The translations under genes and the position numbers were made by a program. Source: a virus (Duplodnaviria > Caudoviricetes). Taken from it: a stretch of DNA of 61,023 bases. Shown here in pieces: positions 7,307 to 29,705 of this stretch. Position 1 is the stretch's first letter; each line of letters starts with the position of its first letter. The notes under the pieces are model-generated. The model did no database searches. It was not told where the DNA came from and saw only the letters and a program-made list of their open reading frames with translations. The DNA lies in IMG/VR virus record IMGVR_UViG_3300042554_000484, positions 1 through 61,023 of that record; one strand, given 5' to 3'.

Positions 7307-7729
7307 TCAGGTCAGGTCAACCCACAGGTAACGGAACGTAGCCGCCGCCTCGTTGATCGCAGAAGCAGTGGCGTTCACCGCGTACACCGTGACCGTGTTC
7401 GTAGCCGTGACCGCAGCCCCAGCGAACACAAGACCCGTTGTCAGCGCGGGAGGATTGACAACCACCACGTCACCGGCGGCAGCGCCCGTGACCGTGATCG
7501 TTCCCGATCCCGTCTCGCCGGCAGCGATCTCGGCGAAGTCCACCGAACCCGTGCCAGTAGCGATCTTCTTGATGACGGATCCCGAAGATCCGACAGCGAG
7601 CGTGCCCGCTGTCAGATCACCGGTCACCGTGGCGTCGTCACCGACCGTGAGGTCATCGGTAGCGACCACGTCATCGTCAGCGTGTAGCCGGCCGACAAGG
7701 GCCTCTCCCTGAGTGAGACGGTTAGACAT
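7307..7729 (-). CDS. Capsid decoration / head fibre-like protein
   Basis: Directly downstream of the major capsid gene; Thr/Ala/Val-rich beta protein. Confidence 0.55.
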   Translation of the reverse strand: MSNRLTQGEALVGRLHADDDVVATDDLTVGDDATVTGDLTAGTLAVGSSGSVIKKIATGTGSVDFAEIAAGETGSGTITVTGAAAGDVVVVNPPALTTGLVFAGAAVTATNTVTVYAVNATASAINEAAATFRYLWVDLT

Positions 7730-8706
7730 CAGGCCACCGCTGTGTTGAAGTAGACACCGAGGTCGCTGGACACGACCTTGTTGTCGAACGCAACCTCAGC
7801 CTCGACACGATCCGCCTTGAGGGCGTCCATGCGAATCTGAGAGGTGCCGACCGTCTGGCCGAGGCCACCCGACACACCAGTCCACGAGAAGATGTAGCCG
7901 GCGGACGGGGTGAGCAGGCCGGGGTTCGGGGCGACGTGGCCGAGCCACGCAACCTTGCCCACGTTGAACGAGTAAGCGCCAGTGGCACCCTCGTTGTTCG
8001 TGGCCCGGATCGACTTGGCGACGAGCACGCGGTCCACCTCGAACATGCGGGCGAGCATGTCGCTCGTCACCACAGAAGAAGAGGTGTACTTGATGCGGTC
8101 GACGATGTCGGGGTGATGACGCAACTTGCGGAACGTCTCGTACCCGAGGACGAGGGTGTTGGCCTCGAAGCCCGTGGTCGAGAGGATCTGCGCCTTGCCG
8201 GTCTCAACATTCTCAATCGGATCGGAGTTGGCGTAGTCGCTCCACTGCTTGAACTCGTCCGTGGAGGGAGCGCCGGCAACACCGGTGTAGTCCTTGCCCC
8301 AGACCGAAGTGGTCATGTAGTCGGACACGAACTGGACCTCGCGACGGAGCAGGAGACGCTGCGTCACGAACTCGGCAGCCTCACGAAGCGGGTTCAGCGG
8401 GCTGTCCGCGTTCGCCTTCGTCTGATCGCCGACATCCTTGTGGAACGCCCACACGTCAGCCGAGTACGTCGCGGTGCTCAGGTTGTAGCCCGAGCCAGCC
8501 GACTCGGTTGCGTCGGCGCGGCGCTGGGCCTCGTCGCGGAACCAGTCGTTCTTCGTGTAGACGAAATACTTGTCCGACTTCTTGTCCACCGGGACAACCG
8601 GGAAGACCTTGTCGGCGATGAAGTTCTCCGACTTCTGCATGTACGCGACCGAGATGTTGGTCAGGATCGCGTCGATGTGAACATTGTTCACGTTCGGCTG
8701 TGCCAT
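7729..8706 (-). CDS. Major capsid protein
   Basis: 325 aa after scaffold and cement genes; HIDAILTNISVAY...FIADKVFPVVPV...WSDY..SDPI pattern of lambda gpE-like capsid proteins. Confidence 0.88.
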   Translation of the reverse strand: MAQPNVNNVHIDAILTNISVAYMQKSENFIADKVFPVVPVDKKSDKYFVYTKNDWFRDEAQRRADATESAGSGYNLSTATYSADVWAFHKDVGDQTKANADSPLNPLREAAEFVTQRLLLRREVQFVSDYMTTSVWGKDYTGVAGAPSTDEFKQWSDYANSDPIENVETGKAQILSTTGFEANTLVLGYETFRKLRHHPDIVDRIKYTSSSVVTSDMLARMFEVDRVLVAKSIRATNNEGATGAYSFNVGKVAWLGHVAPNPGLLTPSAGYIFSWTGVSGGLGQTVGTSQIRMDALKADRVEAEVAFDNKVVSSDLGVYFNTAVA

Positions 8707-8735: not shown

Positions 8736-9131
8736 TCACGCAGCCCGCGAGGGCGCGGCGCAGTTGACGACGGCGGTTGCGATTTCGTTGTCGGCTCCGA
8801 CTGCGAGGATCACGGTGCCGACGACGTACTCAGTCGTGTCGGTGCCGGGGACCTTGGCATCAGCCTTGCCTGCGTTGTTGGTTCCGATGAGGGTGCCAAC
8901 GGTCAGAGCGGCAGAGGCGACGATCTTCGTGCCGCCGGCCACAACGATCTCGGCTTCCTCGCCCTGAAGGGGCGCGTTCTGAAGCACGCCGATCGGCCGG
9001 TCAGTGGCGCCGTTGCACAAGGTCACGACACCGCCCGTTCCGATCTCGACGAACTTGTACTGATGGGTGCTGAGGTCCGCCCCCGCGACGAGGGTGATCT
9101 TCAGCGAGTAGTTGTTGATCTCGTATGCCAC
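8736..9131 (-). CDS. Capsid cement/decoration protein (DUF2190-like)
   Basis: AGADLS..YKFV...PIGVLQN.P..GE.AEI...G..K pattern; sits between scaffold and capsid. Confidence 0.7.
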   Translation of the reverse strand: MAYEINNYSLKITLVAGADLSTHQYKFVEIGTGGVVTLCNGATDRPIGVLQNAPLQGEEAEIVVAGGTKIVASAALTVGTLIGTNNAGKADAKVPGTDTTEYVVGTVILAVGADNEIATAVVNCAAPSRAA

Positions 9132-9136
9132 GGCGA

Positions 9137-9949
9137 TCAGCCCTTCTTCTCGGCGAGGTACTCGGTGTAGAGAGCCGGGTCGCTGACGAACACGTCAGAG
9201 AGAGCCTGCTCGAAAGTGGCTGAGGTGCCGTCAGCGACAGCGGCCTTAGCCAGCGACTCCGCCTTGTGGAAAGCGGAGCCAGTATGAACGGGCGTTGAGC
9301 CGATCTCGCTGAAGATGTCAGCGGACTCGACCTTCGCGTTGGCCGCAAGCAGCGTGCTCTCGACCGACTTCGCCAGGGCCTCATCGACCTCGGCAAGGCG
9401 ACGCAGCGCCGGGCCGACCTGATCGGCGTCAAGACCGAGAGCCCCGTAGGTCTCGCGGGCCTTCACGACCGCGTCAGCGTCAGCACGCTCTGCACGCTCC
9501 TTGAGAAGCGTGGCCTCGGCAGCCTCGGCCTTAGCCATGGCCTCCTGCGCCTGCTTCTCCATGACCTCGAACGCCTTACGAACAGACTCAGGCGCAGCCT
9601 TCATCATGTCCTCGTCGTCCTCGGGCTCTTCCTCATCCGAATCGCCACGGGAGGCCATCTCCTTCTCCATATCGGCGATCCGCGACTCGGCAGCGGCGAG
9701 GGCCTTCAGGGCCTCGTCGAGCCGATCCTCGGTGCTCTTCTCCATGTGGCCCTCCTGGGCGTCGGTGGACGGCACCTCCTCTTCGGAGGTGTCAGGTTCC
9801 TCGGTGATCTGCTCCATCGCTGCCACAACAGCGTCAGGGTCGGCCGCCTTCATGACGAGCCACCCCTCGGCAAGGTGAGCAGGATGATCGACGCCGGATG
9901 TCTCTTCGATAGCAAGATTGACCATCTTGCGCGTACGGCGACGCTCCAC
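9137..9949 (-). CDS. Capsid scaffolding protein
   Basis: GTG start after AGGAGG; N-terminal EETSGVDHPAH, acidic Ala-rich coiled coil, ends PALYTEY. Confidence 0.75.
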   Translation of the reverse strand: MERRRTRKMVNLAIEETSGVDHPAHLAEGWLVMKAADPDAVVAAMEQITEEPDTSEEEVPSTDAQEGHMEKSTEDRLDEALKALAAAESRIADMEKEMASRGDSDEEEPEDDEDMMKAAPESVRKAFEVMEKQAQEAMAKAEAAEATLLKERAERADADAVVKARETYGALGLDADQVGPALRRLAEVDEALAKSVESTLLAANAKVESADIFSEIGSTPVHTGSAFHKAESLAKAAVADGTSATFEQALSDVFVSDPALYTEYLAEKKG

Positions 9950-10155
9950 AGATCCTCCTAAACCAGACACGGGCCGCCAACCCCTAAGTAGGGGCGACGA
10001 CCCGCAGGTCTCGATGAGGCTAGGTTAGCACGATCCCTGTCCCCCGAGAGGGTTGCGAAACGGGTTGTGCGGATGCTAAGGCAAGGCCGACAGCCCAGCC
10101 GGCGATGAAGCCGCAGCCGAGCCACGCCGCCACTGCGACGACAGCGACCCCCGTC

Positions 10156-10377
10156 TCAGGGGTCCACGAGTTCCGTAGGTCCACCGTTGAACACCACTAC
10201 GGGCTTGCTGCGGACTCGTCCACGGGAAGCGGACAGGCGAATGTCGACCTGCTCGGCGGGGAACGCCCGCATGGCGAGGAGGAACTCGGGGGAAAGCAAC
10301 TGTGCACACCACGCCGCCACAACAGGGGGTATGTCGGGTGAGTCGAGGGCAGCCTTGACCACGTCCCGCTGCATCAT
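10156..10377 (-). CDS. Hypothetical protein
   Basis: 73-aa ORF between protease and scaffold. Confidence 0.5.
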   Translation of the reverse strand: MMQRDVVKAALDSPDIPPVVAAWCAQLLSPEFLLAMRAFPAEQVDIRLSASRGRVRSKPVVVFNGGPTELVDP

Positions 10378-10417
10378 CCGAGTGACTCCCGCAGCATCCG
10401 CTCTTCTCCGGGCAGAC

Positions 10418-11083
10418 TCACTCGGTCTCCTCCAAGTCGACGAACAGTCTCTCGGCGCGTCCCCCAATAGAGTAGCCCCTGATCTTGCCGCCCTTGACTA
10501 ACTCCCACGCCCACGGCTTCCACTTCACGCCGAGGAACACGGTGTTAGCGGGGAACGACACCGGTTCATGTGTGTCCTCACCGGTCGCGGCCTTCTTCAT
10601 CATCGGCACCTGCACCTCGTAAGGCCACGTCATCACCTCGACCCACTCCCCAGCGACCTCATCCCGGTCATGCTGAAGACGGATCCGGCGGTCGCCGCCC
10701 TTGACGTAATCCCACACGGCCTTCTGCAACTCTTGCGCGTCGGTCCACTCAGAGTGGGCGTCGAGACGGTCGGGGATGTACATGGGGCCGAGGGTGAACA
10801 TCTCCTCAGAGACGGCCTTGGACACCTCGAAGTCGCCGACACTCTTCGCCACCTCGGGAGTGAAGGCGTCAACAGCGAACAGGCGGGCCTGCTCCTCGGT
10901 GATCTCTTCGAGGCGCGGGTCACCGTCCACGATGTACAGGGCGAGACGTGGGTAGTCGACCCACTGCTTCTCGACGATGTCCCATAGGTAGGTGTCAAGG
11001 GTCTGGGCTTCGTCGTCTTGCTCCATGCGGAACAGGGCGTAGATGCCTTGCTCGTCGACCTTACCGAACAGTCTGGTAGCCAT
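10418..11083 (-). CDS. XkdF-like (S78-related) prohead serine protease with an N-terminal immunity-like domain
   Basis: C-terminal part: G..Y.PD..DAH.EW...I.LQH...W..VK.G.I.GYSIGG. First ~80 aa: ALFR...W...IVDGD...EEITEEQA. Confidence 0.78.
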   Translation of the reverse strand: MATRLFGKVDEQGIYALFRMEQDDEAQTLDTYLWDIVEKQWVDYPRLALYIVDGDPRLEEITEEQARLFAVDAFTPEVAKSVGDFEVSKAVSEEMFTLGPMYIPDRLDAHSEWTDAQELQKAVWDYVKGGDRRIRLQHDRDEVAGEWVEVMTWPYEVQVPMMKKAATGEDTHEPVSFPANTVFLGVKWKPWAWELVKGGKIRGYSIGGRAERLFVDLEETE

Positions 11084-11104
11084 AACTCTCCTTCTACCCC
11101 CAGT

Positions 11105-13717
11105 TTAGACTAGGCCGGCGTCTTGAGCCGTCTGGAACCCCTGGAACAGGGTCGTGCCGATCGACAGCACCGAACCGGACGGCACCGCAATGCTCCGTGC
11201 CATGCGGGTCATGCGGTTGTACGTCTTCCAGCGGGTCCGATTGTCGCGAGACTCACGATATGTCTCGTACTCGGCGTGGATCGGCTCCTTCGCCTTGAGG
11301 GATCCGGGCGTGTGGAACTGCAACTCGAACTTCTGCCCATTCGGGTGAACGGCAGCGACGTTGATCCCCTGGTAGGGGTCGCCTTCCTGCCAGTAGTTCT
11401 TGACTCGCATCTGGTAGCCCTTGGCTTCGAGGTCGCTGATCGTGGCGGACACGCCATCGGTGTAGCCGTCTTCCTCGAAGGTCATGGTGTAGCGCACCAC
11501 GTCGGACATCTTGTCGGCAGTGACCTCGGCGTCGCCGCCGTTCTCGACCTTCTCGTCGTCGATCTTCCGAGCGAGGGACTTCTCCGCCTTCATCCGGTAG
11601 TCGAGACCCTCCATGGTGCCGCCGTTAGCGTTCGCCGTGTCGATCATGTCTTTCGTGATCTCGGGCTCGGCCTCGGCTGCCTTGTCACGAACCCGCTTGG
11701 CCGCTGCGACCACGTTGTCGGGTCGACCGGTGGCCGAGGGGTTGTCGACCGGGTTCAACTTGTAGCCGCCATAAGACGCGCCACCCTCGGGCGCCACCGA
11801 GTCCCCTCCGCCGGCCGAGGATCCACCACCCTTACGGGGGGCATGGCTCGACTGGTCATGTGACCCGTGCTTCTCGACAGGCCAGTTGAGGGTCACCACG
11901 GCACCACCCGGCAGGGAGAACGTGGTCAGGCTGTTGGGCAGGTAGTCGTAGTACAGGGTGTGGCCGTCGAGTGACTTCGAGGTGCGGTTGCGCTTGTCAC
12001 CCGGCCACATGCCGGTGACCTCACGGTGCCGGATCGCGCAGTAGCCCTTGGCCTGCTCGCTGGTCATGTACTTCCCGACCGCAGCCACACAGGCAGTGAA
12101 GTCGCCGCCGGCGCCCCACGAAATCTTGCCCTTGCCACCGCCACGCCAGTAGTCCCGCAGCGCCTCGGGGTTGCCGCGCTTCTCCATCTCGTCCGCGAGG
12201 TAGGCGTAGGAACCGAAGTCGGACAGGTCGTCGTCGTCCATGGTGGACAGCAACTCTTCCTCGTCGACCTCGTCATCGGTCAGTGGCCCGCCCGTGAGCC
12301 ACGCCGAGCAGGATCGTGCCGCAGCGCACTTGAACTGGAACAACTCGCAGTAGCCCAGACCCGCCGCCTCGGCGACATCTTCACCCTCGTCGCTGATGTT
12401 GCCGGCGATGGCATCGACGATCTCTTCCTTCACGTTGAAGGCGGCACAGTTGCCGCAGCGGGTCGTAGACGCCTCATCCGCCGGCACGCCCCACACCTCA
12501 CCGAGACGCTCCCAGTAGTCGCCGGGCTCGTCCGGGTTCATCGGCCCATACAGGTACTCGTCGATGGCGTGCTGCCGGTTCTCAAGGTTGACGTGGATGT
12601 CAGTGATCGCCTCGGGGACGGCACGCTTCTCCACGTCACCGAGCACGGAACGCACCCATGACCGGCCGGGGTCTCCGCCCCACGCATCCCACGCCACACG
12701 CCACGGCGTCGGCTCCCCGTCGTCGAGTTGGGCGTGGTCGCCGCGCTGCTTGCCGTGCCGGGCGAAGTAGGCCCGCATCTTCACCAGCGTGTCCTGGCCG
12801 ACCGTGCCGCCCTCGGCGAGTTGCCTAGCCCGGTTGCGGCCCACTGAGGTGAACCCGTCGCCGGCCTTGCCGTCCTCAATCCACGCCACGGCTCGACGGG
12901 CAGCGGAGCGGACAGCGTCGGGCACCTTGTACGAGTCGGCCTTCTCAAGGGCCCCAATGGACTTCAGGGACGACGCCCGATGCCCCACGACCGTGTCCGT
13001 GGGCCGGAAGCCCTGAGAGGTGAGCCGGTACACGCGGATCAGCACCGCTGGATCCTCTTCCGAGGCGTTCAGGGTGAAAGTGGAGTCGGGCACGTTGACC
13101 TTGCCCTCGGTGACGATCCGCTCGATGCGGCCCCTGGCGGGTCCACCGGATGAGCCCCAGGTGACGAAGTCGTCGACTCGCCATTCCTTCGCCTTAGCGA
13201 ACCGTTCGATCTGGTCGAGACGGGCCTGCGCTTCCTCGCGAGTGTCGTAGGTGCCGAACTCCCGATCCGTGTCCTCGGCCATGACGACGTACTTGCCGTC
13301 CCGCTCGACGATGCGCTTGAGCATGGCTTTCGGCTTCTCGGCGCCCATGATGGAGTCGACGTGGACCGTGTTCACGTTGGGTGACGCCTTGAGGACGTAG
13401 CCGTCGACTGTGAGGAGCACCTGCACGACGCCGCCGGCTTCGAGGGCCTTGGCGAGGGGCTCGGACAGGTCGCCGGGGAAGTCGATGTCGTCGACCGACG
13501 CCACCTCGGCCTCATCGACCACGATCACTGACCGGGACCATTGGTCATCCTCGTGTCCGTGGTCGAGGCCCCGCTTCAGCATCTCCTGCGACACCAGATG
13601 GTGGGCCTGCACCGCAGCCGGGTCATCCACGGCAGAGGCGTCTAGGCGGGTGTGCAGTGCGACTAGGTCGTCGGTGGGGAGAGCGGCCAGCCTGACGGCG
13701 GGGTCGGTCACTGTCAT
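11105..13717 (-). CDS. Multidomain head-associated polyprotein with C-terminal RelA/SpoT-like (Apk/Tas1-type) nucleotidyltransferase toxin domain
   Basis: C-terminal motifs RMKAEKSLARKI, DVVRYT, KNYW, YQGIN, FELQFHT, H..YE..R; internal AW.AWGGD.G, Cys-rich and Tudor/SH3-like modules. Confidence 0.8.
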   Translation of the reverse strand: MTVTDPAVRLAALPTDDLVALHTRLDASAVDDPAAVQAHHLVSQEMLKRGLDHGHEDDQWSRSVIVVDEAEVASVDDIDFPGDLSEPLAKALEAGGVVQVLLTVDGYVLKASPNVNTVHVDSIMGAEKPKAMLKRIVERDGKYVVMAEDTDREFGTYDTREEAQARLDQIERFAKAKEWRVDDFVTWGSSGGPARGRIERIVTEGKVNVPDSTFTLNASEEDPAVLIRVYRLTSQGFRPTDTVVGHRASSLKSIGALEKADSYKVPDAVRSAARRAVAWIEDGKAGDGFTSVGRNRARQLAEGGTVGQDTLVKMRAYFARHGKQRGDHAQLDDGEPTPWRVAWDAWGGDPGRSWVRSVLGDVEKRAVPEAITDIHVNLENRQHAIDEYLYGPMNPDEPGDYWERLGEVWGVPADEASTTRCGNCAAFNVKEEIVDAIAGNISDEGEDVAEAAGLGYCELFQFKCAAARSCSAWLTGGPLTDDEVDEEELLSTMDDDDLSDFGSYAYLADEMEKRGNPEALRDYWRGGGKGKISWGAGGDFTACVAAVGKYMTSEQAKGYCAIRHREVTGMWPGDKRNRTSKSLDGHTLYYDYLPNSLTTFSLPGGAVVTLNWPVEKHGSHDQSSHAPRKGGGSSAGGGDSVAPEGGASYGGYKLNPVDNPSATGRPDNVVAAAKRVRDKAAEAEPEITKDMIDTANANGGTMEGLDYRMKAEKSLARKIDDEKVENGGDAEVTADKMSDVVRYTMTFEEDGYTDGVSATISDLEAKGYQMRVKNYWQEGDPYQGINVAAVHPNGQKFELQFHTPGSLKAKEPIHAEYETYRESRDNRTRWKTYNRMTRMARSIAVPSGSVLSIGTTLFQGFQTAQDAGLV

Positions 13718-13744
13718 TAGTCCTCCGGGCTCGATCCTCCTAGG

Positions 13745-13957
13745 TTACCGCTCGACAGGCTCCTGGCCGGGGCTTGGCAGTAGCGCATATGCCATAACGT
13801 CGATGAGGATCTCGCCGTAGATGTCAGTGGCGTCTTCGAGTTTCTGCCCGGCCTTCACTTCGCGCTCCATCACGTCCCAGAACTCGGGGGGTGCCTGATC
13901 GTAGGCGACGGCCTTGAGGGCGGCGATGACTTCGAGGTCTTTCTCCTGCTCGGTCAC
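13745..13957 (-). CDS. Small acidic protein (candidate immunity)
   Basis: 70 aa, Asp/Glu-rich, coupled to the upstream ORF by GTGA overlap. Confidence 0.5.
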   Translation of the reverse strand: MTEQEKDLEVIAALKAVAYDQAPPEFWDVMEREVKAGQKLEDATDIYGEILIDVMAYALLPSPGQEPVER

Positions 13958-14151
13958 TTGACTCTCCGGTAGTACGGGGACTGGAAGACGGCCTCTTGCT
14001 CCTCCGGCGTCATCTTGTCGAACTCGTCGGCGAAGGCGTACATCTCGGGTAGGGCTTCGCGCATGGCCTGCTCATACTCGGTGTCGCTGGCGGTCTCGGG
14101 CAGGGCGTCATAGACCTTCTCCGAGGCTGCGAGGATCTTATCTACGTTCAT
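13954..14151 (-). CDS. Small acidic protein (candidate immunity)
   Basis: ATG at 14151 after GGAGG; own extended -10-like element just upstream. Confidence 0.55.
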   Translation of the reverse strand: MNVDKILAASEKVYDALPETASDTEYEQAMREALPEMYAFADEFDKMTPEEQEAVFQSPYYRRVK

Positions 14152-14195
14152 GGTCTTCCCTCCTTCCATACTCTAACCCCCGTTATGATACCACG

Positions 14196-17100
14196 TTAGT
14201 CGAACAGGGTTTGCTGCCCAGGAATCTGCGGCTCAGACGGAGCCCCAGCAGCCGCCTCAGTCTCCGTAGTCGACCGCCTCGGCCCGGAGGGGCTCAACTC
14301 CTTGATCCCATACCAATCCGTGCCCAGCAACGCCTCCTTGCCCGGCCAGGTAGCGGCACCATCGACGAAGCCCCACGACGCCACCTCGCGGGGGCTCGGA
14401 TAGTCAGGATCCGATGTCGGTAGATCGAGCCGCGCCCGCAGGCTCCTACCCGACCGCTCAACCGAGCCTGGAAGCGCACCGCTATCGAGCACCTCATCGA
14501 ACTGGTACTTGACTGAACTGGTCGCCCCACCGGTACGCGCCCAGTCGAAGCCCTGCCTCGCCCACGCGAACCCACCCACGTCGAGGGCGGCGTGGACATG
14601 CACGTCGGTGATGCCGTGTGAGATGTAGTAGTCCTCTGCCCGCTTATTGAAGACCTTGGCGAACCCGGTGCCCTGGTACTCCTCGTCGATTCGGAGGAGT
14701 TCGTGGCTTACAGCCACTCTGCCGTTGTCGTCAACGAAGAAGCGTCGCTGGAACTCGCCGGCCCAGTCTCCGTTCTCGGTGTAGATCGTGCCGGTGACAT
14801 CGACGTGGTTCTCGCCCCAGTAACGCTCGACAGTCACATCCCCGACCTCGGCTTGTAGCCGGACGACTCGGCCATCGGGTGTCATGCCCTCGTGGCCTAT
14901 CCCGTAGACCTCGTTGAAAGCGTCGGTGTCTAACCCCTCTAGATCGGATTGCCGCATCTCGTCACCGTAGTCAGCGACGTAGAGGTCCAAGTCGCTTTCC
15001 ATGCGTGCTTCGAGGCGCTCGTCGAACTCTTGCTGGTAGGTGTTGCCCATGAGGGGCTCTTCATAGTCTGGGTCGTCACTGCGATCTACCCAGCCCTCGT
15101 CTGCCATCTCCTCGGCGACTGCATCGCGTGCGCCTTCCTCAATAACATCGGCATATTCGTCGCGGACTCGCTCACGCAACGCATCATCATCCATGCCGCC
15201 AGCGGCACCGACCTCCAACACGTCACGGCCCGGCCCCACGTTAGCCATCGCGTCGATGTCTTTCTGCCGAGCGCCCCAACCCGACGACGCCCCACCGCCA
15301 CCACGACCATGCGACTTCTGATCATGCGCCCCGCCGAGATGCTTCCGCAGAGACTTATCCATCCACGACGGCCTGCCGTACTTCTCGTAGTAAGACTCCC
15401 GCAGGCTACGAGCCTCATCGTCAGTGAAGCCCCAACGCTTCTTCCGCTTGATCCCCACCCGTTCCGCAACCCGAGTGATACGCCGCTCCACACGTCCCAT
15501 CGCCGAACCGAGGCGCCGCGCCAAAGGCGATTCCGGCAAGTTGAGATCCGAATAGTCACCTGTCACAAGGGCCTGAGCGATAGCCTCACGCTGATCTTCG
15601 TATTCTTCCTGCCACGTCTTACCGCCGCCGCGCCTGGAACTAGGTTCATCCGTGTCGAAGTTACTGGTGAACGTGCCACCACCTGACGGCGTGTACCGGC
15701 CCGGCACGCCACGCAACTCGTCAGCCGCAGACGACCCGCCACCACGACGGCCATGTGACGACTGATCGTGTGAGCCGTGCTTTAGGACTGGTCGGAGGCC
15801 GGGCTCGAAGGCGACGACGATTCCTCGCCCGCGAACTTCGCCCACAGAGTCTTTGCGTACTCGTCGATCTCCGCGTCCGTCATCTTCGACAGGTCCGGCA
15901 GTTTCACTACCTGCAACGGCCTTTCCGACTGCTCCTGTGCCACCGGTATCTATCTCCTCGAAGTTGGCTACGTCCCAAATGCTGATCTGGTCCCGCTTAC
16001 GTCCCGCGTCGATAGCGGTGTCACGGTCCATGATGTTCTCGGACACGTCGAGATACACCTTGCCGTCCGCCTGATTGTGCCACAACCCCAGATAGGAGCC
16101 CTCGGACAACTCGCGGTTGGACTTCATGAAAGAGCCCAACGCCTCGGGGCCGCGCTCCGGGTCGTAGAACTCGTCGGCGTCCATGATGGCGCCCTTGCTG
16201 CCGCCCATGGCGACCATGAAGCCCTTAGTGGGTTCGGATCCGTCGACCATGTTGACGGAGAGGCCGCCGTTAGCGCGGACCCTTTCGACGATGGATTGTG
16301 CGACGGTGCCGTCGAGTTTCAGGCTTGATCCTCCGCCGCCTCGGCGACCGTGTGAGGACTGGTCGTGGCTGCCGTGCTTCAGTACGGGGCGCAGCCCAGG
16401 CTCGAACGCCACGAGCACCGACTTCGCTATCGGCTTCACCGCAGTAGGCGGGACAGCGGGATCGAAAGTGTCGAGGATGATGACACGCTCGAACTCGTCA
16501 TCGCCGGCTGCCTTTGTCACGCCCGTTCCCCAGTTGTATCTCCCAGCGAAGTATGTCGACGCCGGGTTCGTGGTGGATCCACCAGTCAGGGACCATTCTG
16601 CCCAAGACTCGGCCAAATGCTCGTAATCATTGAATCTACCGTAGGTACTAAGCGCGTCCATGCCGCCGTTGTCCCGTAGCGCATAGTAGTCGTCGCCGAT
16701 CTGACGGTTGCTGCGCTTGTCGGTGACGTGGCCGTACTCGTGCGTGACAACATACTTCACTTGGCTTACCGTCTGCGCGGAAGGCATCGAATAGCCTTCT
16801 TCGCGGTTGATCAACTTGGCGCCTTGCGCGTATTCCGGGCGCATGTTTATCTGCTTCTCGCCTCGTAGTACGAACGCTTTAGTTGAGTCCTGCACGATGT
16901 CAGCGTTATCGCGGAAGGGCGCGTTACTGAACACTACCGTCAAGCCGCTGACGGGAACCTGCGACTGGCAAGTGTTGAGCGCCTCCATGGTGTCGCGCAT
17001 GGCTGCCGCGTCGGGCTCGCCACCGCCGAGCAACTCGACTCGCACTCGTGAGCCGTTAGGTCCGGTGTATTCGGTTGTCCTATCAGTGAAGTCGTCGGCT

Positions 17101-17279
17101 AGGTCTCCGGCCCGCTGCGGATCGTTGGGGTACTGCCCACTGAACCGGGCTAGGTAGTCGGCGCGGATGTCATCGCGGCTACGCTGCGCCCAGCCCTCGG
17201 GAAGATCAGATGTCCCGCCCTTGTGCGGGTTATGCGACGCCTGATTATGAGACCCATGCTTGACAACCGTGTCCATCAC
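14196..17279 (-). CDS. 1027-aa tagged polyprotein: HExxH metallopeptidase, unknown/possible SAM-lyase-like, unknown, and GNAT domains
   Basis: Four KH(G/LGG)xHxQxSH motifs; HEYGH...STYG...EHLAE; YLGLW...VYLDVS; EEYQGTGFA...GGFAWARQGF. Confidence 0.75.
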   Translation of the reverse strand: MMDTVVKHGSHNQASHNPHKGGTSDLPEGWAQRSRDDIRADYLARFSGQYPNDPQRAGDLADDFTDRTTEYTGPNGSRVRVELLGGGEPDAAAMRDTMEALNTCQSQVPVSGLTVVFSNAPFRDNADIVQDSTKAFVLRGEKQINMRPEYAQGAKLINREEGYSMPSAQTVSQVKYVVTHEYGHVTDKRSNRQIGDDYYALRDNGGMDALSTYGRFNDYEHLAESWAEWSLTGGSTTNPASTYFAGRYNWGTGVTKAAGDDEFERVIILDTFDPAVPPTAVKPIAKSVLVAFEPGLRPVLKHGSHDQSSHGRRGGGGSSLKLDGTVAQSIVERVRANGGLSVNMVDGSEPTKGFMVAMGGSKGAIMDADEFYDPERGPEALGSFMKSNRELSEGSYLGLWHNQADGKVYLDVSENIMDRDTAIDAGRKRDQISIWDVANFEEIDTGGTGAVGKAVAGSETAGPVEDDGRGDRRVRKDSVGEVRGRGIVVAFEPGLRPVLKHGSHDQSSHGRRGGGSSAADELRGVPGRYTPSGGGTFTSNFDTDEPSSRRGGGKTWQEEYEDQREAIAQALVTGDYSDLNLPESPLARRLGSAMGRVERRITRVAERVGIKRKKRWGFTDDEARSLRESYYEKYGRPSWMDKSLRKHLGGAHDQKSHGRGGGGASSGWGARQKDIDAMANVGPGRDVLEVGAAGGMDDDALRERVRDEYADVIEEGARDAVAEEMADEGWVDRSDDPDYEEPLMGNTYQQEFDERLEARMESDLDLYVADYGDEMRQSDLEGLDTDAFNEVYGIGHEGMTPDGRVVRLQAEVGDVTVERYWGENHVDVTGTIYTENGDWAGEFQRRFFVDDNGRVAVSHELLRIDEEYQGTGFAKVFNKRAEDYYISHGITDVHVHAALDVGGFAWARQGFDWARTGGATSSVKYQFDEVLDSGALPGSVERSGRSLRARLDLPTSDPDYPSPREVASWGFVDGAATWPGKEALLGTDWYGIKELSPSGPRRSTTETEAAAGAPSEPQIPGQQTLFD

Positions 17280-18373
17280 ACAGCCTCATCCATCAGACGC
17301 AACTCCGCAAGCCACCTATCCATGTCCTGCGACGGCAAACCAGTAAGCCCGCGAGACGGCGGAATCAACACAGCCGTACACCGACAATGCGGATGCGCCG
17401 GCGGCATCGTATGACCAGTCGGGAACGCAGCGTTCCACTGCACTCGCTTCCCACTCAACGACGAACACACGTCACACGGCTTCCCACGCCGAGACGCCGA
17501 AGGAGCCACAAGCCACTCCTTCTGCGACGACCCATCCAACAGGCCCGTCTTGTACGACGCATCCCACGAAGTCTGTCGCGCCATGTTCTGCGCCAACTGC
17601 AACTCCGTGCGGGCAATCATCTCCGCCCTACGCCGAATCAGCCTGTCCCGGTACGTCTTGGTCATCACGTCGGCCTTGGCCCGCGCCGCCTCCGGTGTCA
17701 TGCCAGCCCTCACGAGTTGCCGGATCGTCGTCGAATCGTAGTTGTCGACAGCCCTAGCCCAGCGGGTATGCAGGCCCACGGTCTGCCGCAACATGCGGGC
17801 CGTGTCATACGGGGAACGGCCCTGCGCGAGAGAGTCACGAATGACGTACCGAATCGCCGTCCGGTTCGCCCTGTCAATGTCCGTCACCAGCATGGCAGCG
17901 CGAGTGTCGGCGTAATACACGGCCCTCGGATCCACGAAGTCGACGATCACGTTACGGATCGGGTTGATCGCGAACTCGTCGACACCGCCACCATCCGGCA
18001 GGGCGAGGCTCGACGGGACAATGATCCCCGAAGGCAACCGGACACCCGGATCTTGCAGGATCGGCACACCCGGCCGGGCATCATTCCGCACCAGTCGAAC
18101 GAACTCTTCCTGAGCCCGACGAAGGTACGCCTTCTTGAGTTTCTCGGCGAGGCGTGCTTCAAGATAAGCGACCGTTATGTCGTTGATGAACTCTTCCACG
18201 GCACTCGGGTCCAGCGAAGAGATCGCGTTGACGAGCCACTCGACATCGGCCACCAGCCGCGTCTCCCGCAACATGCGGGCGATCTGGTCGGCGATTGCCT
18301 GCTCCGCCGGCGTGAAGGGGTTGCTCGGGCCGTAGCCGCCGGGGCGCCGCTTGCCGCCACGGATGATCGCCAC
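17276..18373 (-). CDS. MuF-like (Mu gpF / SPP1 gp7) minor head protein, with no C-terminal toxin
   Basis: RA..IARTE, KEW, C..C, PPAHPHCRC; directly after portal. Confidence 0.85.
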   Translation of the reverse strand: MAIIRGGKRRPGGYGPSNPFTPAEQAIADQIARMLRETRLVADVEWLVNAISSLDPSAVEEFINDITVAYLEARLAEKLKKAYLRRAQEEFVRLVRNDARPGVPILQDPGVRLPSGIIVPSSLALPDGGGVDEFAINPIRNVIVDFVDPRAVYYADTRAAMLVTDIDRANRTAIRYVIRDSLAQGRSPYDTARMLRQTVGLHTRWARAVDNYDSTTIRQLVRAGMTPEAARAKADVMTKTYRDRLIRRRAEMIARTELQLAQNMARQTSWDASYKTGLLDGSSQKEWLVAPSASRRGKPCDVCSSLSGKRVQWNAAFPTGHTMPPAHPHCRCTAVLIPPSRGLTGLPSQDMDRWLAELRLMDEAV

Positions 18374-18376
18374 GGG

Positions 18377-19861
18377 TTACGCCTCTTCGTCGTCGGGCTC
18401 AGGCTCCTCGTCAGCCTTCTTACCCCCACCGAACGGTGCCGCACCACCTGGGAACGCCGGCGCGTCCGGCACAATCCCGGTGCGCTCGGCCAACTGGCGT
18501 TGCGCGTTCGGCAGAGCCAGGAGAGCCTTCTGGTCCTCTTCGCTCATGTCGGATCCGCCGGCGTCCTCGGTGTTGTGGGCAGCCGGGGGCAGGCCCGCAA
18601 GGTCGCGCAGGTGATCTTCGAGGGTGGGGTCGGGCACGAGGATGCCAGCGGCGGTCATCTTGGAGACGAAGTCGCTGATCTCGGTGAGGTCGACATGTGC
18701 CACCTCGGAGTACACGAGGTTGGGGCAGCGGGTCGTGTCCATGCCGTTGAGGCGCATGAGGCGCGGGATGGCGTGGGCGTTGATCGTGTCAGCGATCGTC
18801 TTGCACAGGCTATCCACAGCCATCGTCCACAGGTCCATCTTCGTCGCGCCGAGGGCAAACGAACCAACCCGGTCATGGCCGAGGAGGATGAAGTCGCTGA
18901 GGACCGACATGGCGATGCGCTGGTCATACCGCTGGATAATCTTGTCCGTGTCGAACTGACGTGACCCGCCCGACGACAGCAACGTCAACTCGAAGAGTTT
19001 ATGGCCCGCCTCGTCGTAGATGACGGGGAAGATGACGCCCTCGTTCTCGTTCCGCTTGATCGAGGTGACGATCTCCTTGACAGCGTTCAACACACCGATC
19101 TGCTCCGGGGTTGCTGTCGAGGACAGGTACTCCGGGGGCACATGGGCGACGGGAAGGCCGGCGAGGTCACGCTCGATACCGATCGCTTCGATCTCTTCGA
19201 TGCGGCGCTTGAAGTACCAGGGGCGGTAGGCGTTGCGGAGCAGTGAACGGCCCTCGGGGTTATTCTTCTGCGTCGTCGTGCGGAACAGCAGCGACTTGTC
19301 GATCGGGATGGTGTGCATCCCGCCACCGGACGGGTCGTACTGTGTGTACGCCTGGATTCCGCCGTCCTCGTCGAACTCCCACTTCATCCACGTCTCTTGG
19401 GCGCGGATCGGCCACTTGCGCCAGCCAATCTTGCCGTCATTGAACTTGGACCGCTTCTTCGGATCCTTCTGATCGGGGCCGAGGCGACGCTTGTACACGA
19501 TCTCGTGCCAGGACCAGCCGAACACAACGAAAGACAGGATCGAGGCGAGCGCGGAGTCCCACGAGTCGCTCATGTCATTGAGGCACTCTTCAACGAAACG
19601 GGCCGCCTCAACATCGTCCTCGGCGGGCTCGTCGGTGGCGCCGATCTCATTGAACGGGTCGATGCGCCATTCGAGGCGGGTGATGATCTTCTCGACGGCG
19701 AACAGGAATGAGCCGATGACCGGATCGTTGTCCGACATCTCCCGGTAGGTGCGGGTGCCGAGGCGGCCCCGCAACTGTGTGAGGAACTCCTCGTACACAT
19801 AGCCCGAGGAGCGGCGTAGACCGGTTGAGCCTATCTCGGTGAGATCGGGCCTCGGTGCCAT
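18377..19861 (-). CDS. Portal protein (DUF935 / Mu gp29-like)
   Basis: 494 aa; NPEGRSLLRNAY.PW.FK..I...EAIGIERDLAG.P; GSFALG. Confidence 0.88.
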   Translation of the reverse strand: MAPRPDLTEIGSTGLRRSSGYVYEEFLTQLRGRLGTRTYREMSDNDPVIGSFLFAVEKIITRLEWRIDPFNEIGATDEPAEDDVEAARFVEECLNDMSDSWDSALASILSFVVFGWSWHEIVYKRRLGPDQKDPKKRSKFNDGKIGWRKWPIRAQETWMKWEFDEDGGIQAYTQYDPSGGGMHTIPIDKSLLFRTTTQKNNPEGRSLLRNAYRPWYFKRRIEEIEAIGIERDLAGLPVAHVPPEYLSSTATPEQIGVLNAVKEIVTSIKRNENEGVIFPVIYDEAGHKLFELTLLSSGGSRQFDTDKIIQRYDQRIAMSVLSDFILLGHDRVGSFALGATKMDLWTMAVDSLCKTIADTINAHAIPRLMRLNGMDTTRCPNLVYSEVAHVDLTEISDFVSKMTAAGILVPDPTLEDHLRDLAGLPPAAHNTEDAGGSDMSEEDQKALLALPNAQRQLAERTGIVPDAPAFPGGAAPFGGGKKADEEPEPDDEEA

Positions 19862-20920: not shown

Positions 20921-20946
20921 AACCCCAGTGTAGCACAACGGGGGTT
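20921..20946 (-). promoter_or_regulatory. Phage promoter/operator: extended -10 TGCTACACT flanked by AACCCC/GGGGTT
   Basis: aacccccgttgTGCTACACTggggtt; repeated many times in the genome. Confidence 0.7.
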
Positions 20947-22943: not shown

Positions 22944-23411
22944 TCAGGGGAGGAAGCGGCTGATGTCGATTCCGGCTTCCGATTCGAGGATCCTGAGTCC
23001 CTGCTCATACTTCCCGGTCAGTCGTGCTCGGATTGCAGGGTCGGGGATCCCGTCTATGCGCTGGTAGTTGTCGATCATGTCGGATGTCTTCACCCATGCG
23101 GCGATCGGGTTGCGGGCGAGTCGACTGACGTGGTCACCGTAGGGCTCATGCTTGTCGGTGCGCGTGAGCAGCCCCACGGCTTCGATCACGTCGGGGTGTG
23201 CGCCGAGGGCTCGCAGGTCGTCGAGGGTGTGCGGCGTGTCCTCGACAACGTCGTGGAGGAGGCCGGTGATGACGTAGGTGTCACCGAACTCGTGCAGTCG
23301 AGCGCCCACTCGCAGCGGGTGCAGGATGTAGGGGGATCCTTGCTTGTCGACCTGCCCGTCGTGGGCGCGGGTGGCGAACTCGATGGCGCCCTCGACGGTA
23401 ATCAGCATCAC
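22944..23411 (-). CDS. HD-domain small alarmone hydrolase (Mesh1/Aph1-like)
   Basis: A..AH.GQ.DK.G.PYI.HPLRV, LLHDVVED, VK.SD..DN. Confidence 0.88.
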   Translation of the reverse strand: MMLITVEGAIEFATRAHDGQVDKQGSPYILHPLRVGARLHEFGDTYVITGLLHDVVEDTPHTLDDLRALGAHPDVIEAVGLLTRTDKHEPYGDHVSRLARNPIAAWVKTSDMIDNYQRIDGIPDPAIRARLTGKYEQGLRILESEAGIDISRFLP

Positions 23412-25823
23412 GGCTCATTCTCCTCGGGCTCGGGGATTGTGGACAGGGTGAAACCGGTGCGGCACACCTCGGCGGCCCACATGAGATCGTCGATCTGTCG
23501 TTCACGCTCGGCGGCGAGCAAGTCGGCGTGGGGCACGTTGAACTTATGCCAGTAGGCGGGGTCGCTCATGGGTTCGAGCATCATGCAGGCTTGGGCGATC
23601 AGGTAGAGGGCGTTCTCGTAGTGCTTCTTGCCGTTGTGGCGGTTCTCGGCCATGTGGTCGAGGTAGCGGCCGACAAGGAAGTCGCGACCGTCGAGGTCTT
23701 TCGCTTCGATGCCGATGCCGGCGCAACGGCGCAGGATCATGCGCTCCTCGTCGTCGAGGTAGGTCAGTGCGTAGGTCTGCATGTCAGTTCCCCTTCGCTT
23801 CGGCGAGGAACGCATCAACCCAGGCCCGCATCTGCGGGACGGTCTCCCACGCCCCGTATCGCTCGGGCATTGTGAATGTAGTGGTATTCCAGTCGGCTCC
23901 GGGGCGACGCGCCCCGAACAGCATCCCGGCGCCCTTGAGGCCGATGGCCTGGATCTCGGTGCCGGCCTCGGTGGTCCATTCGGCGGCGATGCCGGTGCCG
24001 GTGGCGAGCGGGTAGATGTTGACGGTAGTCATGGCTAGTCCTCCTCGATGATGAAGGAGCCGACGCGGTTGCCGTTCTCGTCGCGGACGTAAACCTCGAT
24101 GAGGGCTGCGGCGCGGGGGGCGCGGTCGGCTACCTTGCTCGCGACCTCGACGAGCATGGCGGCGACTCTGTCGTAGCGCAGAGCGTCGTCGTCGTCGCGG
24201 AACGCGGCATTGTCGGTGCTGAATGTGAGTGTGAATGTGCTCATGGGTGGTCTCCTAGAACGGTGGTGTGGGGTCGGGTGTGGGGAAGAAGCCGGTCGCC
24301 TTGGCTCGGGCGATCATGCACGGCTTGCACGGTGTGTTCGTGAAGTAGCCGAGCGCATCGTCGTGCCCGCAGGTCGCGAGTAGCCCGGTCATCGGGGCTC
24401 CTCGAAGTCGGGCTCGGGCTGCGGGTCGAGGTAGCCGGTGTTCTGGTCGTATTCGCGGGTCTCGGTGGTGCGGTAGTTCTTGATGTTGGCGGCCCACTCC
24501 TCGTAGGGGATCTCGGTGCGGTCGAGCAACTCGATCATGCGGGTGCCGTCTGCGGACCAGAAGGCCCGGCGGTATGGGGTTCGGTACATGATGTTCTCCC
24601 TTCGTTCAACCCCAGTGTAGCACACGGGGGTTATGCGTCTGGTGAGCACCCCGCCGTCCAATGACAGACGGTGATGTCATGCTGAAGTCGCGTCTCACAC
24701 GCCCAACGCGGCTCCTCGCAGCAGTCCGTCATCGTCAGGCAGACCTCCCCGCACTGATTCGGGCAGCCCTCCTCGATCATCTTCAGGACGTGGGCGTAGG
24801 CGTCGCTCTTGCCGCGCTTGTGGGCACGCTCCTCGGGCGTCCACATGGCTAACCCTCGTCCGAGGCGTCGAGGATCTCGAAGTCGCCGAACGCCTTGCCC
24901 GTCATGGCGCAGGCGTTGACGTAGTCGAGAGCGGCCTCACGGTCGCCGTAGGTGGCGATGAGGTTATTCAGGTAGTACACGCGGTACGGGGCTCGGTTCA
25001 TGCGGCGGCTCCCTTCGGGAAGTCGTAGGAACGGAAAGCGTGAGCCTCCCAGACGCGCTCGCTGATCTCGTCCATGTACACGTCGGTCAACTCGCCCTTC
25101 GGGAACTTCTTGCCGGCGCGATTGAACACGCGGCGCACGGTGTAGGTGTCGCGGCCCTCGACGTAGTCGACCTCGACGGTGTAGCCGGCCCCTACGGGGA
25201 GCACGAGGGTGCCGTCGATGAGGCGCTGGCGGCCTCCTGAGACGGCCATGACGGTGATGCCGCCGATCTGGGCGAGCAGTGTGTTGGCCTGGTAGATGTC
25301 CATGTGGGCTCCTTAGAAGTCGGTCGGTTGGGTGTAGGTCTGGCCGTTCAGGGCCATGAGGACGACTCGAACGTCGCCGCCCTTGACCTTCTTGCGGGTC
25401 TTCGCCTGGAAGACGGGGATGGCGGCCAGTTGGGCGCCGTAGAGCGTGTCGGCTTCGACGGTCATCTCTTGGCCGTTCCAGAAAGCACCGTAGGTGTTCA
25501 TGCTGTCTCCTTATTGAGTCCGGCGGGCTTGTCCTCCGACTCGCAGGCGAGGCAGAAGTCTGCGTCGCTACCGAAGTAGGCGAATCCGTACTCGTCGACT
25601 GCGAGGGGCTTGACGATCTGTGTGCGCCCGCACGCCTTGTGGATGATGGTCATGGTGCCGTCGAGAGCGACGGTGTAAGTGGCGTTCTTCACGATGCCTC
25701 CTTGTGATCGGTGGCGCCGCAGTCACCGCAGAACGCGGTCCCCTCGGCGACGCGGGTGTAGGTCTCGCGGCCAGACCAATCGCAGTAGACGGTCTTGCCG
25801 AACTCTTGGCGGATGATTCTCAT
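23408..25823 (-). other. Run of about 11 small, tightly coupled hypothetical accessory genes (e.g. 23784-24032, 24035-24244, 24631-24846, 24998-25303, 25313-25501, 25498-25692)
   Basis: Overlapping stop/start junctions and AAGGGAG/GGAG RBSs; no recognisable families. Confidence 0.6.
24608..24632 (-). promoter_or_regulatory. Repeated promoter/operator
   Basis: aacccccgtgTGCTACACTggggtt. Confidence 0.7.
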
Positions 25824-25843: not shown

Positions 25844-25869
25844 AACCCCCAGTTTAGCACACCCTGGTT
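25844..25869 (-). promoter_or_regulatory. Repeated promoter/operator
   Basis: aaccagggtgTGCTAAACTgggggtt. Confidence 0.65.
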
Positions 25870-27298: not shown

Positions 27299-27325
27299 AA
27301 CCCCAGTGTAGCATACCCCCGGTTT
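27299..27325 (-). promoter_or_regulatory. Repeated promoter/operator
   Basis: aaaccgggggtaTGCTACACTggggtt. Confidence 0.7.
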
Positions 27326-27600
27326 AGGCCCCGGAGGTGGGGTGCTAATCCCACCCCCGACAGCCGCAGTAGAACCTGTCGAACTCGGACGGGGCACGCT
27401 CCTCGAAGTCGTGATCCGTAATCCCAGCCCGCCCCGTCAGCGGATTCCACTTCAGGTGCGCGATGCGGGAGTAGCCGCAACGGCAGTGGTCGACCGCCCA
27501 CCCTGAGCCCGGACCCCGATACTCGACGAAAGCGGCGAGCGGATTCGTCGACTCGGTTTCGGCGCCGCAGTGGCAGCGGGCTCGCCGGCCTTCGAGCCTG

Positions 27601-28673: not shown

Positions 28674-28700
28674 AACCCGAGTTTAGCATACCCCCGGTTG
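28674..28700 (-). promoter_or_regulatory. Repeated promoter/operator
   Basis: caaccgggggtaTGCTAAACTcgggtt. Confidence 0.7.
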
Positions 28701-28717
28701 AGGGCTGACACGGGGGG

Positions 28718-29514: not shown

Positions 29515-29705
29515 TACCCCCAGTTTACCATACCCCCATTTAGGCTCTATCATCGGGGTCATGATCGAACGATGGCTCTGGCGCTGCACCCTCTGCGGGA
29601 AGACCGGCATCTCGAAGGACGCGAGTCGAGGCTTCACCGAGCACTACATGACGACGCACTCGGACCCCCCCCTGTCAGGGACATAACCCCCGTATGGTAT
29701 CTTAG
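29515..29705. promoter_or_regulatory. Divergent promoter pair at the strand switch
   Basis: Minus strand TGGTAAACTggggg near 29517-29530; plus strand aacccccgtaTGGTATCTT at 29685-29703. Confidence 0.6.

Follow-up and report, generated by a model that had tools for sequence, protein, structure and literature searches.

In this study, we analysed the complete record of a virus of the Caudoviricetes (IMG/VR record IMGVR_UViG_3300042554_000484; 61,023 bases, 62.6% G+C, most genes on the minus strand), hereafter the window, and studied its gene for an XkdF-type prohead protease of 221 aa, which directly follows a gene ending in an Apk-type toxin domain. Our main finding is that residues 1-78 of the protease, referred to below as the module, are probably a divergent structural immunity domain of the IapK/Tis1 type, directed against this upstream toxin. 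The reading is supported by computation, namely by a profile similarity to IapK, the adjacency to Apk domains, joint swaps of the toxin and the protease N-terminus among relatives, a free copy of the module at one related locus (L107) and a model of the toxin-module complex. An earlier note on this DNA had proposed an immunity domain fused to the XkdF prohead protease behind an Apk toxin; all of these results favour the proposal, and the missing match to the family model Tis1_ImmP speaks against it.

The N-Terminal Module of the Prohead Protease

The protease gene (10418-11083; minus strand, marked (-) below) is an open reading frame (ORF) lying directly after that of an 870-aa multi-domain head-module protein (11105-13717, (-); ORF listing, Pfam and PHROG), and its product reads MATRLFGKVDEQGIYALFRM...LWDIVEKQW...YIVDGDPRLEEITEEQARLF...TPEVAKSVG. 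It comprises the candidate immunity module (aa 1-78, 10850..11083, (-)), delimited by AlphaFold2, hhalign and free relatives; a linker, AKSVGDFEVSKAVSE (aa 79-93, 10805..10849, (-)), whose predicted local distance difference test score (pLDDT) lies below 50 for aa 80-93; and an XkdF-type prohead protease domain (Peptidase_S78_2, PF14550; aa 86-212, 10448..10828, (-)), recognized by Pfam with E 6.6e-11 and by PHROG head maturation protease families. The roughly 80 extra residues that had been described ahead of the XkdF domain are present, the Pfam domain starting at aa 86 and no significant Pfam match falling on aa 1-85. AlphaFold2 modelled aa 1-78 with a pLDDT of ~92-95, alone as well as in the whole protein, as four strands, a helix, a strand and a further helix. 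In these models, the module is a separately folding domain tethered to XkdF by a disordered linker; the window holds one copy only. Foldseek with the model of the whole 221-aa protein found nothing at E <= 0.001, the resemblance to a herpesvirus protease fold being weak (probability 0.84, E 0.054), and phmmer of the protein against PDB sequences gave 0 matches.

The Upstream Apk-Type Toxin Domain

The last ~210 residues of the 870-aa protein (aa 661-870, 11108..11737, (-)) match the small alarmone synthetase SaSAS (PDB 8vx3, E 3.7e-18). This C-terminal domain also matches 128 phage records, including 35 of Streptococcus, 3 of Pasteurella, 2 of Mannheimia and others, and among the matches listed it is ~31-37% identical to the ends of phage head proteins; MuF-Apk2 toxins have been reported in prophages of S. 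pneumoniae, P. multocida and M. haemolytica. Passages of PMC12226406 give RYT (syn2), GxN (syn3) and YH (syn4) as signatures of the Apk type. RYT, G-I-N and F-H stand at the syn2, syn3 and syn4 places of the window domain, the assignment of these motifs being our own. Similarity and signature residues identify the domain, at the level of its sequence, as an Apk-type RelA/SpoT synthetase, and they suggest (p)ppApp synthesis and toxicity as its predicted activity. Pfam found no Phage_Mu_F in the 870-aa protein, the MuF domain being encoded by a separate gene (17276-18373), and we therefore call the toxin carrier Apk-type, not strict Apk2.

Similarity of the Module to IapK

As the IapK reference, we used the small ORFs after Apk2-type genes in five phage records, which are 69 and 72 aa long where translated. 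An end motif of IapK resembling E-I-(S/T)-E-E-E-A, which the earlier note had given, is borne out by these records, the genes at the IapK position ending in DFEEISENDA in a Streptococcus pneumoniae phage and in DFEQISEEMA in a Pasteurella phage. When 118 module sequences were compared with the five genes, hhalign gave a probability of 78% and E 1.7e-5 over 58 columns, the match running from 3 to 70 in the query and from 4 to 63 in the template and covering nearly the full length of both module and IapK. The score of 29.0 was reached by 0 of 200 column-shuffled templates (maximum 15.4, mean 9.0). The reversed IapK template scored 9.4, and the N-termini of proteases linked to Zeta toxins, taken as negative controls, scored 9.4 against the module and 9.5 against IapK. 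In addition, the size agrees with the IapK type, the folded unit of aa 1-78 standing beside free relatives of 73-79 aa and IapK-position genes of 69 and 72 aa.

Occurrence of the Module and Co-Variation With the Toxin

Scanning 1.84 billion representatives with aa 1-86 in HMMER yielded 11 matches at E <= 0.001. Six of these are free-standing proteins, 73-79 aa in length, each ending within a few residues of the domain boundary. Relatives of other architecture include the metagenomic P0129, in which Apk domain, module and XkdF form one uninterrupted ORF, and P0051, in which the module is followed by XkdF and then by a further C-terminal domain. A 4145-aa match (P0124) was set aside on reading as a repeat or low-complexity artefact. 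Fusion to the protease is common: among the 120 best homologues of the 221-aa protein, a list biased to full-length similarity, 108 carry the module and 12 have unrelated N-termini. Relatives are encoded on 234 IMG/VR stretches.

Co-variation was studied in 99 IMG/VR loci around XkdF relatives together with the window (100 in total), one of which was dropped for a short XkdF match; L088-L091, which are not centred on XkdF, were left out. After collapsing identical sequences, 62 distinct XkdF were obtained, 5 of them with too little upstream sequence to tell and one being that of L107, treated below. The upstream toxin was known for 56: an Apk domain lies directly upstream of all 51 module-bearing XkdF, a Zeta toxin lies upstream of all 5 with another N-terminus, and 0 are discordant. 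Pfam confirmed Zeta_toxin in 4 of 4 loci tested (L012, L096, L099 and L106; E 3.5e-24 to 5.9e-19). The extension is not universal in XkdF proteins and tracks the Apk domain, which goes against the refuting case named by the earlier note. On a maximum-likelihood tree of XkdF, at least 4 changes between Apk and Zeta are forced by well-supported branches, the five Zeta rows forming four clusters with L016 beside L012. Counted over all copies, many of them close relatives and some contigs entering twice, an Apk domain ends 9-132 nt upstream of 82 of 82 modules with at least 750 nt of upstream sequence, and 85 of 85 Apk domains in the retrieved loci have the module just downstream.

The exchange can be followed between the window and the Zeta-type locus L012. 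The 870-aa protein is homologous to its 903-aa counterpart over aa 4-613 (52% identity) and the two proteases are homologous over aa 77-219 (76% identity), while all that lies between these segments is replaced, from the linker motif through the toxin domain and the intergenic gap to the N-terminus of the protease. The left edge of the swapped part is the linker motif KHGSHDQSSH with a G-rich stretch (aa 616-625, 11843..11872, (-)), directly before the toxin domain; at the right edge, similarity to the L012 protease begins at E77 in BLASTP and the N-termini are unrelated, in good agreement with the junction VAK/S placed there by the earlier note. Judged from these alignments, the C-terminal part of the toxin and the N-terminal part of the protease form a putative toxin-immunity cassette that is exchanged as a unit and straddles the gene boundary. 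In L107, the Apk domain ends at 2222, its stop is overlapped by a free-standing module ORF of 75 aa that begins at 2219, and XkdF is found within a different 496-aa gene ~1.6 kb downstream. The module thus follows the toxin, not the protease.

Modelled Complex of Toxin Domain and Module

Modelling of the toxin domain (aa 661-870) together with aa 1-78, a check that the earlier note had named, passed its controls: the interface score ipSAE was 0.90, 0.90 and 0.89, and 0.37 in the best of three controls. In calibration, 58 of 80 solved complexes attained the mark, compared with 2 of 110 mismatched pairs. The runs share at least 84% of contacts, and the pLDDT of the partners is at least 88. The confident interface takes in YQGINV, the E of ELQFHT, and HAEYETY, which form the catalytic cleft, over the syn3, syn4 and syn5-like motifs. 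The model supports binding of the module to the toxin domain, and the modelled interface fits the mechanism described for IapK and Tis1, which are reported to occlude the synthetase active site (passages of PMC10083569).

The model speaks for binding, not for inhibition, and binding would also be expected of an adaptor or escort that brings the toxin protein to the protease for cleavage at its linkers or for joint loading into the procapsid. Such a role would suit the 108 module-protease fusions among the 120 nearest homologues, the KHGSHDQSSH motif that precedes the toxin domain and recurs at module borders, and the single polypeptide P0129, which would need processing. However, IapK, to which the module is similar, is described in the cited papers as an inhibitor that occludes the active site, the modelled interface lies over catalytic motifs, and the free-standing module of L107 is not joined to the protease; furthermore, the roles of inhibitor and adaptor could coexist. 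We consider it improbable that the module is an adaptor instead of an inhibitor.

Evidence Against an Immunity Function

Several results weigh against an immunity function of the IapK/Tis1 type. First, other similarity searches gave little. Pairwise BLASTP of the module and IapK was not significant (E 0.022 and 0.097 for single comparisons), and Pfam PF24154 (Tis1_ImmP) had no match in the window at E <= 10 and matched 0 of 7 module sequences. Since PF24154 also fails on 5 of 5 IapK-position genes, this test is without power here. Tis1 (6ox6_B) ranked 8 of 48,161 chains in VIA-align with 62 of 76 residues aligned, a weak match within the noise band of the search (Z 3.6, rmsd 3.9 A; top Z 4.2). 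Foldseek with the module found nothing at E <= 0.001, and profile searches of PDB sequences found nothing significant (best E 0.053 for the module, to UPF0297, and 0.23 for IapK). Tblastn of the module alone against phage records gave three chance-level matches only (E 6), and the ESM Atlas gave clusters of hypothetical proteins, with a Tis1_ImmP-bearing cluster at rank 25 (score 0.84) as a lead only. The proposed similarity of aa 1-80 to IapK/Tis1 holds for IapK in hhalign; on the structural side, Foldseek gave nothing and Tis1 matched with a Z of only 3.6. Second, the module also heads two other metagenomic proteins: P0128, where the KH..HDQ..H linker and an ADP-ribosyltransferase (ART) domain follow, and P0130, where it stands with the same linker ahead of an HExxH protein. 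Viral and metagenome scans for the contexts of P0128, P0130 and the free 77-aa P0121 returned only the ART-domain relatives L088 and L089 (no module, no Apk) and the 1.1-kb fragment L091. Third, co-variation is no proof of function because adjacent segments can co-vary by linkage alone. Fourth, the complex was modelled from a 7-row module alignment made here and a toxin chain without an alignment, and the pass may partly reflect predictor memory because the Tas1-Tis1 complex is already solved.

Results of this kind would be expected if the module were unrelated to immunity, for example a pro-domain of the protease or a leader targeting the capsid or scaffold, with a chance match to IapK and with linkage behind the co-variation. 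The absent Tis1_ImmP match and the weak fold matches are in line with this, as are the unrelated N-terminal domains of other XkdF proteins, such as the 2H phosphoesterase in Kovu and ValentiniPuff, and the occurrence of the module in P0128 and P0130 leaves some room for a general role as an N-terminal leader. Chance, however, agrees poorly with an hhalign score reached by none of the 200 shuffles and with negative controls at 9.4-9.5. The free 75-aa ORF of L107, coupled to the Apk stop with XkdF elsewhere, speaks against a leader of the protease; the module following all 85 Apk domains and the complex score of 0.90 against 0.37 also argue for a connection with the toxin. A module without any part in immunity is, in our judgement, very improbable, even more so than the adaptor.

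Proposed Mechanism and Possible Generality

If the module is an immunity domain, as we favour, it would bind across the catalytic cleft of the predicted Apk-type RelA/SpoT synthetase and block the toxin in the producing cell as IapK and Tis1 do; homology, gene context, co-variation and the complex model all point this way. With a disordered linker joining it to the protease, the antidote would be made with the maturation protease and would travel with it. A second, enzymatic protection may come from an Aph1-like HD hydrolase, a candidate immunity gene by homology, whose ORF (22944..23411, (-)) belongs to the early region and lies ~12 kb away from the toxin. In tblastn with the Aph1-position genes of three phage records, this gene gave E 5.7e-16 (37% identity), 4.1e-15 and 1.1e-11, and Pfam HD_4 scored 31.9 bits, its cut-off being 27.2. 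The corresponding hydrolase gene of Streptococcus and Pasteurella phage records lies directly after the ORF at the iapK position. The Aph1-like gene of the window indicates that the two-antidote logic of Apk2 systems is present, with the hydrolase located in the early region. More speculatively, head maturation could cut off or destroy the module and leave an armed toxin in the capsid for the next host.

A broader proposal is that the 5' end of the protease gene is a general immunity slot, in which the antidote to whatever toxin lies upstream (Apk or Zeta) is built onto the maturation protease, silences the toxin in the producer and the procapsid, and is removed by the protease at maturation, the Zeta-linked N-termini being new antitoxin domains. 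We regard this generalization as doubtful. Were it true, the maturation protease would double as a timer that arms a phage-delivered toxin, and the virion would carry an armed, antidote-free toxin. The XkdF proteases after Zeta toxins (L012:5812-6432, L096:3953-4882, L099:3875-4744 and L106:3827-5020) have N-termini that differ in sequence between loci and have no Pfam match. The Apk/Zeta swaps point to these N-termini as candidate new Zeta-antidote domains, so far unannotated, on the same protease.

Comparison With Known Systems

The arrangement resembles the Apk2-IapK-Aph1 systems in having a head-module protein that ends in an RSH-type (p)ppApp-synthetase domain, an IapK-like element of ~70-80 residues right after the toxin stop, the end motif (D/E)EI(S/T)E..A, and an Aph1-type HD hydrolase encoded in the same genome. 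It differs in that the toxin carrier of the window is without a MuF domain, which is found in a separate upstream gene; in that the putative immunity element is built into the XkdF protease as its N-terminal domain and is not a free ORF; and in that the aph1-like gene does not adjoin the others. In the type VI effector-immunity pair Tas1-Tis1 (Apk1), known from Pseudomonas aeruginosa and solved as PDB 6OX6, the active site of the synthetase is occluded by a small immunity protein (passages of PMC10083569). Chain B of that structure, Tis1, is in the top 8 of the 48,161 fold comparisons with the module; on the other hand, the two have no detectable sequence similarity, Z is only 3.6, the module has no Tis1_ImmP match, and delivery by PAAR and the type VI secretion system contrasts with the phage head context of the window.

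With the MuF polymorphic toxin-immunity cassettes (Jamet et al., 2017; PMC5576092) and the polyvalent proteins (Iyer et al., 2017; PMC5512222), the window shares the exchange of variable C-terminal toxin domains along with a downstream immunity element, and multi-domain, head-packaged proteins with shuffled modules. In contrast to these, the window cassette extends over the gene border into a morphogenetic enzyme that is essential. In the passages retrieved from PMC5512222 and PMC5576092, there is no mention of XkdF (0 occurrences in PMC5512222) or of an immunity domain fused to a protease, and a full-text literature search, with supplements and subscription journals not covered, found no paper describing an immunity-XkdF protease fusion. 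What is new here is a candidate antidote that forms part of an essential morphogenetic enzyme, a cassette that crosses a gene boundary, and a slot that holds other domains when the toxin is Zeta. In the passages of PMC10083569 and PMC5576092, it is left open whether MuF/Apk2 toxins travel in the capsid, how the producer survives and what purpose the toxins have; an antidote half located within the essential head-maturation protease would connect the neutralisation of a toxin with capsid assembly in a concrete and testable way. For annotation, the case suggests that an "N-terminal extension" on a phage protease may turn out to be an immunity domain.

Another kind of XkdF fusion is found in gp20 of Arthrobacter phage Kovu (L001:6380-7513) and gp7 of Microbacterium phage ValentiniPuff (L002:6227-7399). 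Their C-terminal XkdF domains are 48-51% identical to that of the window and occupy the same place in the head module, whereas their N-terminal part is a 2H-phosphoesterase domain of ~220-250 aa without an Apk domain upstream, in place of the 78-aa module. A derivation of the module as a remnant of such a 2H domain was considered and dropped, since few residues are identical in the BLASTP extension over aa 46-85 and the module folds alone. These 2H-XkdF fusions are annotated as "RNA ligase" or "capsid maturation protease", and in several related Arthrobacter phage records as "aldolase class I". In Kovu, a 65-aa ORF with a sub-threshold match to RMF (ribosome modulation factor) lies just upstream of gp20.

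The Junction and the 12-mer at the Toxin Stop

Between the toxin stop (11107-11105) and the ATG of the protease (11083) lie 21 nt, with a Shine-Dalgarno-like GAAGGAG (11088..11094, (-)) 4 nt ahead of the ATG. The toxin ORF and the module-protease ORF share one reading frame, parted by the single TAA and seven sense codons (11083-11107). Read-through is not a conserved feature, since the two genes are mostly in other frames in relatives, with overlaps such as ATGA.

The stop codon supplies the first three bases of a 12-mer, TAAACTGGGGGT (11096..11107, (-)), which confirms an overlap already seen by the earlier note; we treat the 12-mer as a putative promoter. It occurs exactly at three sites (11107-11096, 25856-25845 and 29527-29516) and with up to 2 mismatches at 9 sites, all on the minus strand, a number reached by 0 of 100 shuffles (mean 1.72). 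Every site stands 15-40 nt ahead of a Shine-Dalgarno-like sequence and a start codon. At the other sites, a conserved GT(G/A)TGC lies upstream, in most cases with a second TAAACC(G)GGGGT-like copy ahead of it; the copy at 11107 has a TAAACT -10-like hexamer and is without the GT(G/A)TGC, the TGC-extended -10 and the upstream half-site. The claim that this is the same element as at the accessory-gene promoters is hence upheld for the exact and enriched 12-mer, while the upstream half of those sites is absent at 11107. Other promoter-like sites of the window, all (-), lie at 20921-20932, 24608-24619, 25845-25856, 27299-27326, 28674-28701 and 29516-29527. Usually, two TAAAC(C/T)GGGGGT-like copies stand in tandem at a distance of 16 nt, or a C-run variant is followed by GTGTGC and TACACTGGGGTT; each promoter-like element lies ahead of GAAGGGAGA and a start codon.

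An active promoter at 11107 has, in our estimate, somewhat less than an even chance. A scan of 9900-14400 with the sigma-70 consensus gave 0 sites, and in relatives 16 of 21 distinct toxin-module junctions, with start codons picked heuristically, have a gap of at most 10 nt or an overlap, which suggests translational coupling rather than a promoter. Should the element act as a promoter, a role in raising the output of the abundant head genes is no less likely than expression of the antidote ahead of the toxin, which the earlier note had suggested could occur. We give a slightly sub-even chance to the 12-mer being an active -10-type promoter that raises the high-copy head genes (protease, scaffold-like, decoration and major capsid) and does not serve to make the antidote first. 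The identity of the three exact copies, the nine sites against 1.72 expected, and the Shine-Dalgarno-like sequence and start after each site agree with this; so do the genes downstream of 11083, which encode abundant head proteins, and another site, at 20932, which precedes the portal-MuF block. The features missing from the 11107 copy, the empty sigma-70 scan and the tight junctions of relatives count against it.

Gene Order and Linker Motifs of the Head Module

In transcription order, the head module begins with the portal gene (18377-19861, (-)), followed by the MuF-like gene (365 aa, (-); Pfam Phage_Mu_F E 2e-10, PHROG head morphogenesis matches), a gene for a 1027-aa multi-domain protein (14196-17279, (-)), two small ORFs, and the genes for the 870-aa and 221-aa proteins; then come a 277-aa scaffold-like protein, a 131-aa protein and the major capsid protein (7729-8706). 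The XkdF gene is located between the portal/MuF genes and the scaffold/capsid genes, as expected for a prohead protease. Megablast of 9000-14200 against 50,697 phage records found no match, the window record being without a close relative in this region.

The stop of the MuF gene overlaps the GTG start of the 1027-aa gene (17276-17279, (-)), and the linker motif already occurs within the first residues of the 1027-aa protein (aa 7-16); together, the two genes look like a split MuF polyvalent protein. The 1027-aa and 870-aa proteins together have five copies of the motif KH(G)SH(D/N)Q..H followed by a G-rich stretch, all at module borders, the KH..HDQ..H-type sites lying at 11843-11872, 15309-15344, 15753-15782, 16350-16379 and 17232-17261 (all (-)). 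The same motif is present in L107, P0128 and P0130, and the L012 lineage has a different repeated linker, DRSAAGRKAA.ARWGNRG. These recurrent motifs may be protease cleavage sites or recombination joints. The head-module proteins of relatives (L012:689-1822, L012:1810-2973 and L106:1361-3772) carry varied cargo, namely a eukaryotic-type topoisomerase I core (PF01028), DUF3626 and, within the Zeta-bearing protein of L106, a ferritin-like domain.

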